In this document: positions 17,959 through 62,235 of the stretch, piece by piece
Layout of the letters: each line of letters begins with the position of its first letter
Numbering within the stretch: the stretch's first letter is position 1
From: an uncultured Phycisphaeraceae bacterium
GTDB lineage: Bacteria; Planctomycetota; Phycisphaerae; Phycisphaerales; UBA1924
Direction: 5' to 3'
NCBI GenBank assembly: GCA_964460345.1
Contig: CAYWRO010000011.1
Span: 1,872-65,871, forward strand
Length of the DNA stretch: 64,000 nt
Translations under genes and position numbers: made by a program
Notes under the pieces: generated by a model
What the model saw: the letters and a program-made list of their open reading frames with translations, nothing else
The model's database searches: none
Told to the model about the DNA's origin: nothing

Positions 17959-20900
17959 ATGCCCAAGCGAACCGACATCAAAACCATCCTCATCCTCGGC
18001 TCCGGCCCCATCGTCATCGGTCAGGGGTGTGAGTTCGACTACTCCGGCACCCAGGCGTGCAAGGCGTTGCGCAGCGAGGGGTTCCGGGTTGTGCTGGTGA
18101 ACTCGAACCCGGCGACGATCATGACGGACCCGGAGTTCTCCGACCGGACGTACATCGAGCCGATCACGCCCGCGGCGGTCCGGAAGGTGATTGAGAAGCA
18201 GATCGAGATCGGGGACCCGATCGACGCCATCCTGCCGACGCTTGGCGGGCAGACGGCGCTGAACTGTGCGTGTGCGCTCTTTGACGATGGGACGCTGGAC
18301 AAGCACGGGATCGAGATGATCGGGGCGAACCGGCACGTGATCCACCGGGCGGAGGATCGCGCCGCGTTCAACGAGGTGTGTGCGCGCGTGGGGCTGCGCA
18401 TCCCGGAGAGCCGGACGGTCTCGACACTTGCCGAGGCGCGCGAGTTTCTGGAGCAGATCGGGCTGCCGGCGATCATCCGTCCGGCGTTCACGCTCGGCGG
18501 CAGTGGGGGAGGAATCGCGTACAACACGGAGGAGTTTGACGAGATTGTCAGCCGCGGGCTTCGGCTGAGCATGATCAACCAGGTGCAGATTGACAAGTCG
18601 CTGCTGGGGTGGAAGGAGTACGAGCTGGAGGTCGTGCGCGACAAGCGCGACAACTGCATCGTGGTGTGCGGGATCGAGAACTTCGATCCGATGGGCGTGC
18701 ACACGGGGGACTCGATCACGTTTGCGCCGATCATGACGCTGACCGACAAGGAGTATCAGGTGCTCCGCGACGCCAGCTTTGCGATCATGCGCGAGGTGGG
18801 CGTGGAGACGGGGGGGAGCAATGTGCAGTTCGCGGTGAACCCGAACCCGGAGGATGGGAAGTTCGAGTTCGTCGTCGTCGAGATGAACCCGCGCGTGTCG
18901 CGCTCCAGCGCGCTGGCATCCAAGGCGACGGGCTTCCCGATTGCGAAGATCGCGGCCAAGCTTGCGATCGGGTACACGCTGGACGAGCTGCGCAACGACA
19001 TCACGGGCACGACCAGTGCCTGCTTCGAGCCGAGCATCGACTACATCGTCACGAAGATGCCGCGGTGGACCTTTGAGAAGTTCCCCGAGGCGGATGAGAC
19101 GCTCACCACGCAGATGAAGAGCGTCGGCGAGGCGATGAGCATCGGGCGGACGCTGACCGAGTCGCTCCAGAAGGCGATCCGCTCGATGGAAGTGAAGCGC
19201 TTCGGCCTCGGGCTCGACCGCAACGACGACTGGCTGGAGGCCCGCCGCGCGACGAAGGACGAGCAGGGCGTGCCGCGGCGGACGGACGGCTCGCCGATCG
19301 AGTGGCCGATCCCCGAGGAGAAGCTGAGCCGCAAGCTCACGGTGCCGAGCCAGGGGCGGCTCTACTACATCCGCTACGCGATGAAGATGGGGTGGCCCGT
19401 CGAGCGCATCAACGCGCTTTCGAAGATCGATCCGTTCTTCTTGGACCAGATCAAGCGGCTCGTGGAGTTCGAGGACGAGCTGTGCGAGGTTGCGCGCCTG
19501 GAGGATTTGCCGCGCGAGACGCTTTTCCGCGCCAAGCAGATGGGGTACTCCGATGCGCAGCTTGCGAACCTGTACCTCGGGAAAATCTCGTCGGAGACGA
19601 TTCTGAAGGTGCGGGCGCATCGGAAGGCGCTCGGGATCGAGCCCGTCTACAAGCTCGTCGACACGTGCGCGGCGGAGTTCGAGGCGGTGACGCCGTATTA
19701 CTACTCGACGTATGAGCAGGGGGTGGAGCGGGCGAGAGACGGAGAGACGGAGAGACGAAGAGACGAAGTGGGGGATTCGCAAACGTCGTCCGACGCGCGA
19801 CACTCCGTCTCTTCGTCTCTAAGTCTCTCCGTCTCTCCCGACGACGAGATCCGCGTGACGGACCGCAAGAAGGTGATCATCCTCGGTGGCGGACCCAACC
19901 GCATCGGCCAGGGGATCGAGTTCGATTACTGCTGCGTGCACGCGGCGTTCGCGGCGAAGGAACTCGGCTTCGAGTCGGTGATGATCAACTCGAACCCGGA
20001 GACGGTATCAACCGACTACGACACGAGCGATCTGCTCTTCTTTGAGCCGTTGACGCTGGAGGATGTGCTGAACGTGGTGGAGCGGCTGAACGGGTCGGGG
20101 CCGGCAGTGGAGCAACTCGTCACGTCGGACGGGATCACGCTTGGCTTGGATCGTGCAAACGATGGTCAGCAGGTCCCTCCAGATTGGATTCAGCAGATTC
20201 GTCAGGCCGCGAGTGGCGCGGGTATCGGCCCCGTTGCAGTCGTGGACGCATTTCAGTCGCGGCACGAGACCGGAGTTCATGCCGTCGATCTTTCGGGAGG
20301 GTTGTGGAGGTTTGCGTTCAACGCTAAGAGCGGGGGCCCGGTCCACGTCGCGCAGTGGAACTGGGATGAAGCGCTGGGCGGTGACAATCGCGAGGAACGT
20401 GAACTGGCAGCGGCGTGGAGGGAACGTCGACGCCTCGTCAACGGCCTCATCGTCCAGTTCGGCGGCCAAACCCCCCTCAACCTAGCCCACGGCCTCGCCC
20501 GCGCCGGCGCCCCCATCATCGGCACCTCTCTCGACTCGATCGACCTCGCCGAAGACCGCGACCGCTTCGACAAGCTCCTCACGCAGCTCAATCTTCAAAA
20601 ACCTCCCAGCGGCATCGCCCGCTCCGTCGATCAGGCCGTTGAGATCGCCGGCCGCATCGGCTACCCCGTTCTCGTCCGCCCCTCGTACGTCCTCGGCGGC
20701 CGCGGCATGGAGATCTGCTCCGACGAGAAGGCCTTGCGGCACTACATGGCGACGGCGGTGGACATTTCCGAACTCGACAACGCCCCGGTGCTGATTGATA
20801 AGTTTCTTGATCGGGCGACGGAAGTGGATGTTGACGTCGTGGCTGACTTCGAACCTTCGGGGAGAGACAAAGAGACAAAGAGACGAAGAGACGAAGTGGG

Positions 20901-31562: not shown

Positions 31563-31605
31563 GCGCGCGGCGGCGTTCTGCGGTTGAGCCGCGCGGGGGC
31601 GGGGG

Positions 31606-31710
31606 AGTTCACGACAGAGACACTGAGACACGGAGAGGTCACGGAGAGTGCCGGGCGCTTTCTGTCCCTCTCGCCTGACTTTTCTCTGTGCCTCTGCGCC
31701 TCTGTGGTTC
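31606..31710. repeat. Intergenic purine-rich octamer-repeat imperfect hairpin
   Basis: Left arm CACGACAGAGACACTGAGACACGGAGAGGTCACGGAGAGTG faces the CT-rich right arm CTTTCTGTCCCTCTCGCCTGACTTTTCTCTGTGCCTCTGCGCCTCTGTGG. Both have an 8-nt periodicity. Confidence 0.6.
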
Positions 31711-31780
31711 AATTTATCAGTTGCACGGAGCGTCGCGTGGGTCCGCGGTTTGTTCGGGTCGAAGGTCCGGATAACGCAGG

Positions 31781-32011
31781 CAAATGATCAAATGAGCGGC
31801 CCAAATGATCAAATGGACCGGGCAAATGATCAAATGGACGGAGCAAATGATCAAATGGACGGGCCAAATGATCGAATGAGCGGGCCAAATGATCAAATGG
31901 ATGGAGCAAATGATCAGATGGCCCGTTTCATTCGTTCAGATGGATGGTTCAATCGTTCAAATGAGCGGCCCATTCGTTCAAGTGGCTCGTCCATTCGTTC
32001 GAATGAAGCGT
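31781..32011. repeat. Tandem array B: 11 units of exactly 21 bp (7 x CAAATGATCAAATGnnnnGnn, then 4 x yCATTCGTTCAAATGnnnnGn)
   Basis: CAAATGATC starts at 31781, 31802, 31823, 31844, 31865, 31886 and 31907. The variant units start at 31928, 31949, 31970 and 31991. Confidence 0.9.
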
Positions 32012-32069
32012 TTGAAGAGCCTGTCGCCGAGGCGCGCGGGGCGGACCGGTTGACCACCGGTTGCAGGCC

Positions 32070-33545
32070 CTAACACGCCCCCGCGCTGGCCGGGAACCAG
32101 CAGTCCAGGTACATCAGCAGGTCGAAGACGTCCACCCCCGCCTGGCCGTCGAGGTTCGCCGAGGCATCGTGCGCGAACCACGCATCGAGGTAGGCCAGCA
32201 GGTCGAAGACGTTCACGCCGTCCGCACCGTCGAGTTCGCACAGGCACGCCTCGACCGGCAGGAAATGGTGCTCCGCGATGTAGTCGGCGATCTCGGAGCC
32301 GACCTGGCGTCCGACCGTGTCGTCGAAGTTCCAGTGAATCCCGAGGTAGACGCGGCTGCGGCCGTTCTCTTCCATCGCCTGGCTGAAGCTGCTGAAGGAG
32401 CGCACGACGCCCGGCAGTTCCGGGCTTTCAAGCTGGAAGGGGATTGAATCGGTGCCGTAAAAGCGTTCCAGCGCGCGAAAGGCTGCGCCGCCGAAGGTCG
32501 CGTGCCCGGAGAGATACGTCGGAAACGGCGGCGTGAAGTTGTTGATGGTTGACCCATCCGGGTGCACCCCGCCCGGCGCGCCGAGCGGCGTCCATGTCGG
32601 ATCGCCGACCGTGTCCGGGTTCCCGTCGAAGTCTCCCTGGCGGATCCCCGTCACGGGCCGCCAGAAGTCGTAGCGGTACTTGGCGTCCCACGCGACGCAT
32701 CCGGCGTCCGCCATCGCCACCCCGGCCATGGCAAAGAGGTGCGCGTTCTCCCACAGGTCATTGCCCTGCTGCTCGGCGACGACGAGCAGCGCATCGGTGT
32801 AGATCACCATCGGCGTGCCCATCCCCGCGCGGTCGAGCGCCCAGAAGAGGCCGATCTCCGTCTGCTCCGCCGTTCTCGTGGTGCTGTTGAGCGCGCCGAG
32901 CGACTTCACCTCGTTGTACGATTCGGCATACTCAACGCTTGTCATGTCGCCCACCGGCGGGACGTGCATCTGAAAGACCGACGAGATCGCAAACGTGCGC
33001 AGTTCTCCCCACGCCGGGCCCCACGCTTCCTGGTGCGGGTTCAATGGATCCGGCTGCCAGTGCCCCGGCAGGGGCGTCGGTTCATACTCGACCACGGTGT
33101 CGAAACCATCGTCGGCCCGCAGCGCGACGATGTGCGCGCCGACGGCGTCGCCGTAAGCGATGCCGTCCATCTTGCCCGGGCCGTCCGGCATCTCCGCGAG
33201 CATGTCGGCGACCGCCGCGTCCAGCAGGGCCGCCTGCTCCGGATAGATCGACATCAGCACGCGGTACGCCGCCTGCGCGCCCGCCGCTTCGGCCGAAGCG
33301 CCCGCCGGCGCCGGCGCGTGTTCGTAAAACTGTTCGTGGCGAGGCGAGACGCCGTTGATGGCGTCGTACATCGCCAGGTTCACCAACGCGAGCGTGCGCG
33401 ACGTCATGCCTGGATTCTGATAGGGCAGGTCAGCCGTCATCACGGCCTTGGTGACCTCGTTCCACTCGAGCACGACATCGGCCGATGCCGGCGCGCCGAC
33501 AGCGCACAGAAGACTCACCGCCGCGATTCGCCTGACGCTACTCAT
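32070..33545 (-). CDS. Secreted PAP2/vanadium-haloperoxidase-family protein with C-terminal GC-type dockerin
   Basis: PAP2 motifs PTYLSGHATFGGAAF and SRVYLGIHWNFD; signal peptide MSSVRRIAAVSLLCAVGAPASA; tail CLCELDGADGVNVFDLLAYLDAWF...VDVFDLLMYLDCWF. Confidence 0.8.
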   Translation of the reverse strand: MSSVRRIAAVSLLCAVGAPASADVVLEWNEVTKAVMTADLPYQNPGMTSRTLALVNLAMYDAINGVSPRHEQFYEHAPAPAGASAEAAGAQAAYRVLMSIYPEQAALLDAAVADMLAEMPDGPGKMDGIAYGDAVGAHIVALRADDGFDTVVEYEPTPLPGHWQPDPLNPHQEAWGPAWGELRTFAISSVFQMHVPPVGDMTSVEYAESYNEVKSLGALNSTTRTAEQTEIGLFWALDRAGMGTPMVIYTDALLVVAEQQGNDLWENAHLFAMAGVAMADAGCVAWDAKYRYDFWRPVTGIRQGDFDGNPDTVGDPTWTPLGAPGGVHPDGSTINNFTPPFPTYLSGHATFGGAAFRALERFYGTDSIPFQLESPELPGVVRSFSSFSQAMEENGRSRVYLGIHWNFDDTVGRQVGSEIADYIAEHHFLPVEACLCELDGADGVNVFDLLAYLDAWFAHDASANLDGQAGVDVFDLLMYLDCWFPASAGAC

Positions 33546-61925: not shown

Positions 61926-62156
61926 CCTGAAATGATTTCTGACGCACCAGAATTGATTTCGGACGAGTCGGACACGAGTTTGCACGCGTCGGAAGTGGGT
62001 CCGCACGCGTCCGAAACGACATCCGATGCGTCCGACACGAAGTCGCACGCATGAGAACTCAAGTCGGACGCATCAAAAACGAGGTTGCACGCGTCTCAGA
62101 CGAACTCGCACGCGTCTGAGATGAAATCGCACGCTCCTGAAATGAAGTCGCACACA
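61926..62156. repeat. Tandem array C: 11 units of exactly 21 bp (consensus TCnGAnAcGAnnTcGCACGCG)
   Basis: Unit starts at 61926, 61947, 61968, 61989, 62010, 62031, 62052, 62073, 62094, 62115 and 62136. A degenerate extra unit lies at 61905. Confidence 0.9.
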
Positions 62157-62172: not shown

Positions 62173-62235
62173 ATTCTCTATTCTCTCTTCTCTATTCTCT
62201 AATCACTACCCACTGTCCACTATCAACTATCAACT
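62173..62235. repeat. Nine tandem heptamers (ATTCTCT x4-like, then AnyCACT / ATCAACT)
   Basis: ATTCTCT ATTCTCT CTTCTCT ATTCTCT AATCACT ACCCACT GTCCACT ATCAACT ATCAACT. AT-rich, and immediately 3' of the rnr stop. Confidence 0.8.

Follow-up and report, generated by a model that had tools for sequence, protein, structure and literature searches.

Array B, a run of eleven 21-bp tandem repeats at positions 31781-32011 of a 64,000-nucleotide stretch of contig CAYWRO010000011.1 (GenBank assembly GCA_964460345.1; the whole stretch is called the window hereafter), is probably a non-coding polar minisatellite module, in which a head (TCGAAGGTCCGGATAAC) is followed by 21-bp units, and one of about 100 modules of this class dispersed in its genome, its core forming a putative binding site repeated every two helical turns. 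The same class of module is present in other Phycisphaerales families. The genome concerned, G000, is a 3.83-Mb metagenome-assembled genome (MAG) of the Phycisphaerales with 66.6% GC and 152 contigs, which bear C numbers below; other G numbers designate relatives and L numbers fetched loci. It is the sole species of its genus among the genomes compared, and its GspE protein assigns it to the Phycisphaerales/Phycisphaeraceae, the best relative being at 79-81% identity. The literature searched contained no description of period-locked 21-bp arrays in bacteria, nor of a class such as that of G000, with one head end and a uniformity that decays from the head; the nearest reports are a survey of satellites (PMC6749651) and a description of heptamer repeats (PMC4679880).

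The module is made of the following parts.

31759-31775, + strand: head of Array B, TCGAAGGTCCGGATAAC, with GATAAC at 31770-31775, 5 nt before unit 1.

31781-31927, + strand: type-1 units 1-7, head-proximal, each with the core CAAATGATCAAATG and a 7-nt variable segment.

31928-32011, + strand: type-2 units 8-11, distal, with the core CATTCGTTCAAATG and a CCATT...AATGG dyad.

32041-32046 (the part spans 32041-32061), + strand: GCGGAC, a possible but weak distal partner of the head.

32045-32061, + strand: small dyad ACCGGTtgaccACCGGT, overlapping the GCGGAC at 32041-32046.

The eleven units follow one another head-to-tail in strict 21-bp phase, as can be read directly, and an earlier note on this DNA was right to describe a switch of core type after unit 7 without loss of phase, seven units with CAAATGATCAAATG being followed by four with CATTCGTTCAAATG. 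The type-1 core is exact in five of the seven units and carries a single A>G change in the two others, and each of units 8-11 departs from CATTCGTTCAAATG by one mismatch. At up to two mismatches, CAAATGATCAAATG has 7 matches versus 0.11 expected from dinucleotide shuffles, and CATTCGTTCAAATG has 4 matches versus 0.14 expected from shuffles. Tandem Repeats Finder (TRF) assigns a period of 21 to the array, and higher orders of 42 and 63. The two unit types share the half TCAAATG, which is arranged as a direct repeat in type 1 (CAAATGA-TCAAATG) and in inverted form in type 2 (CCATT...AATGG); TGATCA (GATC) is present in every type-1 unit. The type-1 unit has no self-complementarity (fold z=0.09) and the type-2 units have a 5-bp dyad only. 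The division of each unit into a 14-nt constant core and a 7-nt variable segment, also proposed in the note, holds, since 92% of the differences between units are confined to one 7-column window (permutation p=0.001, with the test applied to the TRF-called part at window positions 31779-31921, i.e. six whole units). The low GC content that it mentioned was likewise found, with 0.47-0.50 in the array versus about 0.69 in the flanks.

The period of Array B recurs throughout its genome. TRF returned 832 rows for G000, including 234 at period 21, 54 at 42 and 29 at 63, versus 17 rows at each of the neighbouring periods 20 and 22; periods 28, 35 and 49 are nearly absent, so that 21 is not simply any multiple of 7. 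Once merged, the rows at 21, 42 and 63 form 243 arrays, 98 of which reach at least 84 bp (at least 4 units), with boundaries taken from TRF and with a copy number that may be collapsed in a short-read MAG. Non-coding status was assigned to 92 of these 98 by a purpose-written codon-usage gene caller, a crude one with 81% coverage and conservative starts. The 92 are located between tandem (43), divergent (20) or convergent (8) genes or at contig edges (21), approximately in proportion to the length of the intergenic gaps, and their orientation is unrelated to the neighbouring gene strand, the local GC skew or the local gene-strand bias. The period-21 class alone represents about 26 arrays per Mb, and its arrays occupy about 3% of the intergenic sequence. 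By comparison, of the 119 bacterial reference genomes in a published survey, only 18 exceeded 4 satellites per Mb (PMC6749651). A modest excess of arrays is seen at contig ends (6 versus 2.65 expected). An assembly artefact related to the k=21 of some assemblers was rejected, because the units differ and because arrays also occur in complete single-contig chromosomes (G006, 3.9 Mb, and G153, 4.6 Mb).

Other repeats accompany this class. A second abundant class in G000 has a period of 7 or 14 (80 and 27 TRF rows, respectively) and often lies beside 21-bp arrays, with units such as CAATGGA, CAGTGGA and CCCATTC (e.g., C82:7586-7659, C8:1481-1667, C12:5866-5949, and C52:23700-23816). Back-to-back 21-bp arrays are common, with two to four per gap, some each with its own head, in blocks of up to about 1 kb; examples of repeat-only blocks are G000:C5:64793-65572, C10:15138-16089, C5:3375-3864 and, in G170, L119 150-766. 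With arrays masked, a small excess of identity persists at lags 21, 42, and 63 over neighbouring multiples of 3 (intergenic identity of 0.2935 at lag 21 versus 0.2906 at 18 and 0.2873 at 24). This excess outside arrays is confounded by unrecognised coding sequence and coiled-coil heptads, and could correspond to decayed arrays or to such heptads.

Many of the arrays share a motif at one end. Read outward from the arrays, GTTATC occurs in 27 of 189 flanks versus 1.6 expected from the intergenic background, an enrichment of about 17-fold, and the related GTTATT (9 versus 0.43 expected) and GTCCGC (22 versus 7.8 expected) are also in excess. GATAAC itself has 379 copies in G000 and lies in the outward sense within 80 nt of 27 of the 98 arrays; at least 27-38 arrays have it 1-56 nt outside one end, and each of the nine intergenic GTCA-GATAAC sites is followed by an array. 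Several head subfamilies can be distinguished, namely ACGTCA-GATAAC-CCTCGC, CCG-GATAAC, and GGT-GATAAC-ACGGT-GCGGAC. In the adjacent modules C5:64893 and C5:65281, the heads share about 90% identity over 71 nt and precede arrays with unrelated units.

The third subfamily contains a bipartite motif seen in many heads, GATAAC-N-C-NNN-GCGGAC (GATAAC-N5-GCGGAC), with 9 copies in G000 versus 1 for the control. Among 200 genomes of the order, it has about 36 copies in 28 other genomes versus about 6 for the control, and at about 10 of the 16 loci fetched a co-oriented open reading frame (ORF) follows it at a distance of 20-450 nt. The downstream ORFs are diverse, and include response regulators with a helix-turn-helix (HTH) and a receiver domain, SpoIID, RsmE, PilM, and an L9 operon. 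Because GATAAC-N5-GCGGAC also stands upstream of such diverse Phycisphaerales genes, its occurrence in heads suggests that the head might be a recognition element in general use, of promoter type or other, and with this bipartite motif the order may have a promoter-type element not described so far. More specific assignments were tried and rejected. GATAAC as a general -10 element is unsupported in G000, where 56% of copies are co-oriented with genes and no conserved -35 is found at 17-bp spacing, and the head was rejected as a DnaA box, a sigma-54 site or an extracytoplasmic function (ECF) sigma site upon comparison with the consensus sequences of those sites. From the DnaA box (TTATCCACA-like), only TTATC is conserved in heads, which continue with CGGAC, TGACG or ACCGC and not with CACA.

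Sites of the bipartite motif in other Phycisphaerales include L166 1501-1517, L167 1498-1514, and L171 1534-1550, all on the - strand, with others within L165-L180. In three genomes of one genus, the motif is part of a conserved leader before a gene pair encoding an HTH_17-receiver regulator and an HDOD protein, and long heptamer arrays (CCACACC x15, AAATCAT, and GAACATC) adjoin this leader.

Evidence that modules are copied is given by a paralogue of Array B at an unrelated locus, G000:C9:42421-42653, which has the same head and first unit. Its head, TCGAACGTCCAGATAA, lies at a distance from the first unit identical to that of Array B and, in the orientation set by this head, the locus shows cgaacGTCCAGATAATcccgg, followed by CAAATGATCAAATGAGCCGCC and by ten type-2 units that alternate between CATTCGTTCAAATG and CATTCGCGCGTTTG. 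The two arrays agree in head, head-array spacing, first unit and type-1/type-2 junction, whereas their flanks differ past the 16-nt head and the alignment of their tails is not significant (p=0.13). Unit balance also differs, with 7 type-1 and 4 type-2 units in B and 1 and 10 in C9; shared head and first unit combined with differing balance indicate that arrays disperse and turn over in register. From this comparison, B and C9 are copies of one module whose unit numbers have since changed in phase. Looser relatives of Array B were found at C10:67104, C54:14440, and C121:5356.

Relatedness extends to other members of the class. Genome-wide, 21 pairs of arrays share at least 17 of 21 unit positions versus 0 expected, and 16 multi-member unit families cover 42 arrays. 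Short cores recur among arrays, such as AAATGAT (9 arrays versus 0.39 expected) and GAGCGC (15 versus 3). Perfect 10-bp palindromes are present in 18% of units versus 4.3% of shuffled ones, and 12-bp palindromes in 12% versus 1.2%; the mean fold z of array units is -0.97, the type-1 unit of Array B being an exception. A non-uniform distribution of variation between core and variable columns reached p<0.05 in 20 of 74 arrays, versus 3.7 expected.

Arrays are, in addition, polar with respect to the head. Across 35 head-oriented arrays, identity between adjacent units is 0.80 in the head-proximal third versus 0.74 in the distal third, with the proximal value being higher in 25 arrays, lower in 7, and equal in 3 (Wilcoxon p=3.8e-4). 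For Array B, polarity rests on the uniformity of the type-1 cores versus type-2 units that are each off consensus.

The locus of Array B comprises, beside the module itself, the following features.

29811/29823-31562, + strand: gene of a gspE-type ATPase of the type II secretion system (T2SS; GspE/T2SSE), Pfam T2SSE at 3.3e-130, ending 197 nt before the head.

31648-32073, + strand: only open frame through Array B, 141 codons with ANDQMDG heptads, judged not to be a gene.

32070-33473/33656, - strand: PAP2/vanadium-haloperoxidase-like gene with weak Pfam matches to VCPO_N and PAP2; the codon-usage call is 32070-33473.

As the earlier note stated, the array sits between the 3' ends of two convergent genes, here gspE and the PAP2-like gene. 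Genes with Pfam matches in the neighbourhood are GspD, GspE, PAP2-like, a LacI-type regulator and a glucoamylase-like gene. Looking up the exact GspE protein gave no identical match, and a metagenome scan for two adjacent Array B cores returned a single chance match on an unrelated low-GC contig. In the closest relative (L009 5746-5841), synteny ends right after gspE, which is followed by a 95-nt gap with an ordinary hairpin and then by a different gene; the PAP2-like gene, the hairpin element and Array B are lacking at this gspE locus. No array of at least 3 units was present downstream of gspE in 80 relatives (694 kb).

Further repeats were observed in the window. Directly upstream of the head, positions 31600-31712 form an imperfect inverted repeat of 7-8-nt GAGA-rich/CTCT-rich sub-repeats (GAGACACG... 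/ ...CTCTGCGC), whose inner end CCTCTGTGGTTCAATTT recurs as CCTCTGTGGTTCACTTT beside a related array at G000:C121:5251-5355, and whose 8-mers GAGAGACG/CGTCTCTC are also found at window positions 19734-19838 and 20863-20896, and in G006. Two other 21-bp arrays, at 1154-1405 and 61926-62156, belong to the genome-wide class, with GGGCCC-centred palindromic units and GCACGCGTC units. Repeats of 7 nt follow the second of these, Array C (ATTCTCT x4 at 62173-62201, and ACTATCA at 62219-62235).

Similar arrays exist elsewhere in the order. When 200 genomes of the order were scanned for GAGCGC in three copies at a spacing of 15-27 bp, G000 had 70 matches versus 1 for the reversed control, and clear 21-bp GAGCGC arrays were found in G064, G153, G044, G179, and G170, which belong to another family, f4. 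Most arrays of family f4 combine a GGAGCGCTC or GAGCGCAG core with variable spacers. An outward GATAAC stands at 5 of 10 fetched f4 array loci, two of which have a 50-nt leader in common (GATAAC-ACGGCAAATCGCGTCCATCCGTGGCTTACCCACGGGTTTTCCAC). Within the family of G000, a 200-kb sample of the complete 3.9-Mb chromosome of G006 contained two 11-unit arrays, with no GATAAC within 105 bp of either, and the 21-bp array of G046 has a core, TCAAATGGAACCGGG, that resembles TCAAATGGACCGGG of Array B. The latter array, in another genus of the family (L182 1340-1560, G046:C19), was seen to consist of about 10 units of GGGAAGGCCTCAAATGGAACC and to share TCAAATGGA(A)CCGGG with Array B; it is preceded by heptamers of the CCCAATG type, and no GATAAC is visible nearby. 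The GGAGCGCTCC triple was tried as a marker of the class and rejected: a scan of 185,579 species gave 18 loci in many phyla with mixed periods of 17-27, so that it is no clean marker.

The explanation that we favour combines these observations as follows. Modules stand at many unrelated intergenic sites, in either orientation, and so behave as self-contained units and not as parts of particular operons. Related modules at different loci, i.e. the B/C9 pair and the 16 families, show that modules are copied to new places, and unit number and type change in register, as the 7+4 units of B and the 1+10 of C9 document. Growth or homogenisation would take place beside the head by in-register duplication, with decay at the far end; the statistics display this gradient, and slipped-strand replication or unequal recombination may be the route. 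The constancy of the 14-nt core next to a drifting 7-nt segment would be explained if the core were a recognition site. In B, this putative site would be TCAAATG, a half-site paired directly or in inverted form; many other arrays would have in its place a perfect palindrome of 10-12 bp such as GGAGCGCTCC. With a 21-bp period, these sites would recur on the same helical face at every second turn, an arrangement that suits cooperative protein binding along the array. The head, finally, might be a promoter-type or other protein-recognised motif, which it resembles.

Several results weigh against this explanation. A recognisable head is found on approximately 28-39% of arrays only, and lies at a variable distance (1-56 nt) from the first unit, so that the head is no precise ruler origin. 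Taken alone, GATAAC is not significantly oriented towards genes in G000 (p=0.15), and a simple scan predicted neither a sigma-70-like promoter nor an intrinsic terminator at the Array B locus. In the TRF-defined part of Array B alone, identity is 0.76 in the proximal versus 0.81 in the distal third, and polarity is not shown. Column-specific variation can come partly from 42/63-bp higher-order duplication and not necessarily from selection. Long 21-bp arrays were absent from random samples of G003, G153, and G038, which were small (200 kb each), and this patchy, sample-level absence indicates a dispensable class, equally compatible with selfish or neutral DNA and with function.

Among the other explanations, a plain neutral variable-number tandem repeat (VNTR), i.e. 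a one-off slippage of a short local duplication with no head, function or kin arrays, would agree with the intergenic location and low GC of Array B, with its absence downstream of gspE in 80 relatives, with the patchiness of arrays among genera, and with 42/63-bp higher orders, which are typical of unequal exchange. It fails as a plain, isolated event because it leaves the shared period, head and polarity unaccounted for: about 98 arrays have the same 21-bp period with different units, a flank motif is enriched about 17-fold and arrays are polar relative to it, a paralogue with the same head and first unit exists at an unrelated locus, and the core of Array B is nearly invariant while its 7-nt segment varies. 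We thus regard the neutral VNTR as largely refuted as a sufficient account and as decidedly unlikely overall. A head-anchored ruler that creates arrays de novo by copying the adjacent 21 nt, with length specified and unit sequence arbitrary, would explain the strict period across dissimilar units, the polarity from the head, the about 90% identical heads before unrelated arrays at C5:64893 and C5:65281, and the fact that in B the amplified unit type is the head-adjacent one. However, the head-to-array distance is not fixed, the similarity between units exceeds chance and recurring cores (AAATGAT, GAGCGC) point to common descent or shared binding motifs, the expanded units of C9 are not of the head-adjacent type, and no candidate enzyme tracks the arrays. 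We hold it as a long shot. The same low standing applies to a broader proposal, that of a Phycisphaerales process measuring DNA in 21-nt quanta, in which a factor docked on the head would repeatedly duplicate or keep homogenising the adjacent 21 nt whatever its sequence, and so give rise to polar, period-locked arrays at about 100 sites per genome, or in which a chromosome-organising protein gripping every 21 bp would select arrays.

Two readings assign a product to the array. The module could be a small transcription unit, its head being promoter-type and its array the body of a repeat RNA, for example a multi-site sponge for an RNA-binding protein or a run of hairpins. The over-representation of the bipartite motif across the order and its position upstream of co-oriented ORFs fit this possibility, as do the independence of modules from neighbouring gene orientation and, on direct reading, a hairpin and T-run just outside GTTATC in one head subfamily. 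Both strands of Array B also fold better than shuffles (z=-4.8 and -6.2), but tandem repeats do so by construction. On the other side, Rfam gave no match at gathering score across the window and, at E<=1 on 7 array loci, two chance matches to microRNA models only; prediction gave neither a sigma-70-type promoter nor a terminator at Array B; many units are loopless perfect palindromes, more in keeping with sites on double-stranded DNA than with hairpins in RNA; head subfamilies differ in the direction of transcription that they imply; and GATAAC is not oriented towards genes in G000. This reading is unlikely, yet it retains a real chance. Far less can be said for a gene encoding a small heptad-repeat protein (ORF 31648-32073), which the divisibility of 21 by 3 (21 bp being 7 codons) and the frame that stays open along the whole array would favour. 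One of six frames is open; high-GC tandem repeats are open in several frames by chance, and shuffled units give 4-6 open frames. GC at third codon positions is about 29% in the repeat frame versus at least 80% in long training ORFs and 0.82-0.93 in neighbouring genes, the ORF matches no Pfam family and is without homologues in a collection of 5.8 billion clustered proteins, and units are palindromic in paralogue C9 and in most other arrays. The ORF is judged not to be a gene and the array is taken as non-coding, a protein product being very improbable.

Resemblance to known systems was also considered. Iterons, as in R6K, RK2, P1, and pSC101, are direct repeats of 17-22 bp placed about two helical turns apart that act as platforms for cooperative binding; their sequence is particular to each system and combines a conserved core with free positions, and they occur once or a few times per replicon beside a rep gene, DnaA boxes and an AT-rich unwinding element. 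Array B is similar in its constant core and in its strict 21-bp phase over 11 units, and a TTATC-containing motif lies at one end, but that head is without the CACA half of the DnaA box on direct reading, no rep or partition gene, DnaA box or AT-rich unwinding element of iteron origins is present, and about 98 such loci occur in 3.83 Mb. The earlier note had compared the layout with a repeat-spacer system in miniature, too small to be a CRISPR array. A constant part indeed alternates with a variable part, and the likeness to a repeat-spacer system stands as far as polarity goes, with an abrupt start beside the leader-like TCGAAGGTCCGGATAAC and distal units that are degenerate across the 35 oriented arrays, a purely behavioural resemblance. 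It fails for the variable segments, whose recurrence elsewhere in the genome the note had suggested as a check: each of the seven 7-mers has about 680-1580 genome copies, near the compositional expectation, and hence carries no target or spacer information. In addition, CRISPR repeats of about 23-50 bp come with unique spacers of similar length, whereas the whole unit here is 21 bp with 7 variable nt, units duplicate their neighbours instead of being acquired, and no cas genes are adjacent. Both the iteron reading, as a replication origin or partition site, and that of a miniature CRISPR-like memory array are therefore refuted on adjacency, copy number and spacers, and we consider them extremely improbable.

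Dispersed repeat families offer other parallels. Mycobacterial interspersed repetitive units (MIRUs) and VNTR loci are similarly non-coding, intergenic, head-to-tail and dispersed, and change by whole units, whereas MIRUs, at 40-100 bp, belong to a single sequence family; in G000, about 100 arrays have many different units, one period of 21, and in many cases a polar GATAAC head from which unit quality decays. In the BOX element of Streptococcus pneumoniae (boxA-boxB(n)-boxC), both ends are conserved and the internal units form a single 45-nt family. Array B shares with BOX and with repeats resembling miniature inverted-repeat transposable elements the combination of a conserved end module with a variable number of tandem units, dispersed between genes; it differs in having one conserved end, the B/C9 tails not aligning significantly, and an internal unit that differs by locus at constant length. 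Repetitive extragenic palindromic (REP) sequences and bacterial interspersed mosaic elements (BIMEs), with their REP-associated tyrosine transposases (RAYTs), are also abundant, intergenic, palindrome-bearing and sometimes clustered, and a RAYT-like gene exists in G000. Array B units, however, lack GTAG and the main one is not palindromic, REPs alternate in orientation whereas 21-bp arrays are head-to-tail at a fixed period, and RAYT homologues also occur in relatives without arrays in samples. Finally, in Beggiatoaceae, Cyanobacteria, and Bacteroidetes, TAACTGA heptamer repeats consist of one heptamer just upstream of start codons (PMC4679880). Like the present class, they are lineage-patchy, intergenic, short-period direct repeats, and G000 also has its 80 period-7 TRF rows; the 21-bp arrays differ by their period, their variable units and the absence of a positional tie to start codons.

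Candidate enzymes were looked for in parallel. G000 encodes a RAYT-like Y1 transposase (Y1_Tnp, 105.7 bits) at C130:5273-5725. With its flanks (C130, 4800-6024), this gene was seen to lie between REP-like, GTAG-bearing palindromes, CGCCCCTCCGGGGCG and GTAGCCACGGGCG...CGCCCGTGG, and a 21-bp array lies immediately downstream of it, at C130:5784-5921. As a mobiliser of arrays, the RAYT is not discriminating: each of the ten genomes tested has a homologue, G003 among them, whose 200-kb sample contained no arrays, so that nothing ties it to the array class. The same ten genomes contain no Piwi domain, which removes the idea of an Argonaute and phased 21-nt small RNAs.

As a rule, tandem repeats in bacteria are regarded as isolated results of slippage or as markers for typing. 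In G000, about 100 non-coding arrays have in common an exact two-turn period and not a sequence, and many of them have one conserved end motif from which uniformity falls away. Such a combination implies either a duplication process that measures length or a protein that reads DNA in a 21-bp register, neither of which is described for Planctomycetota in the literature searched. On the practical side, gene callers can turn period-21 arrays into spurious ORFs and, if their copy number is variable, the arrays would be sensitive strain markers for this uncultured group.

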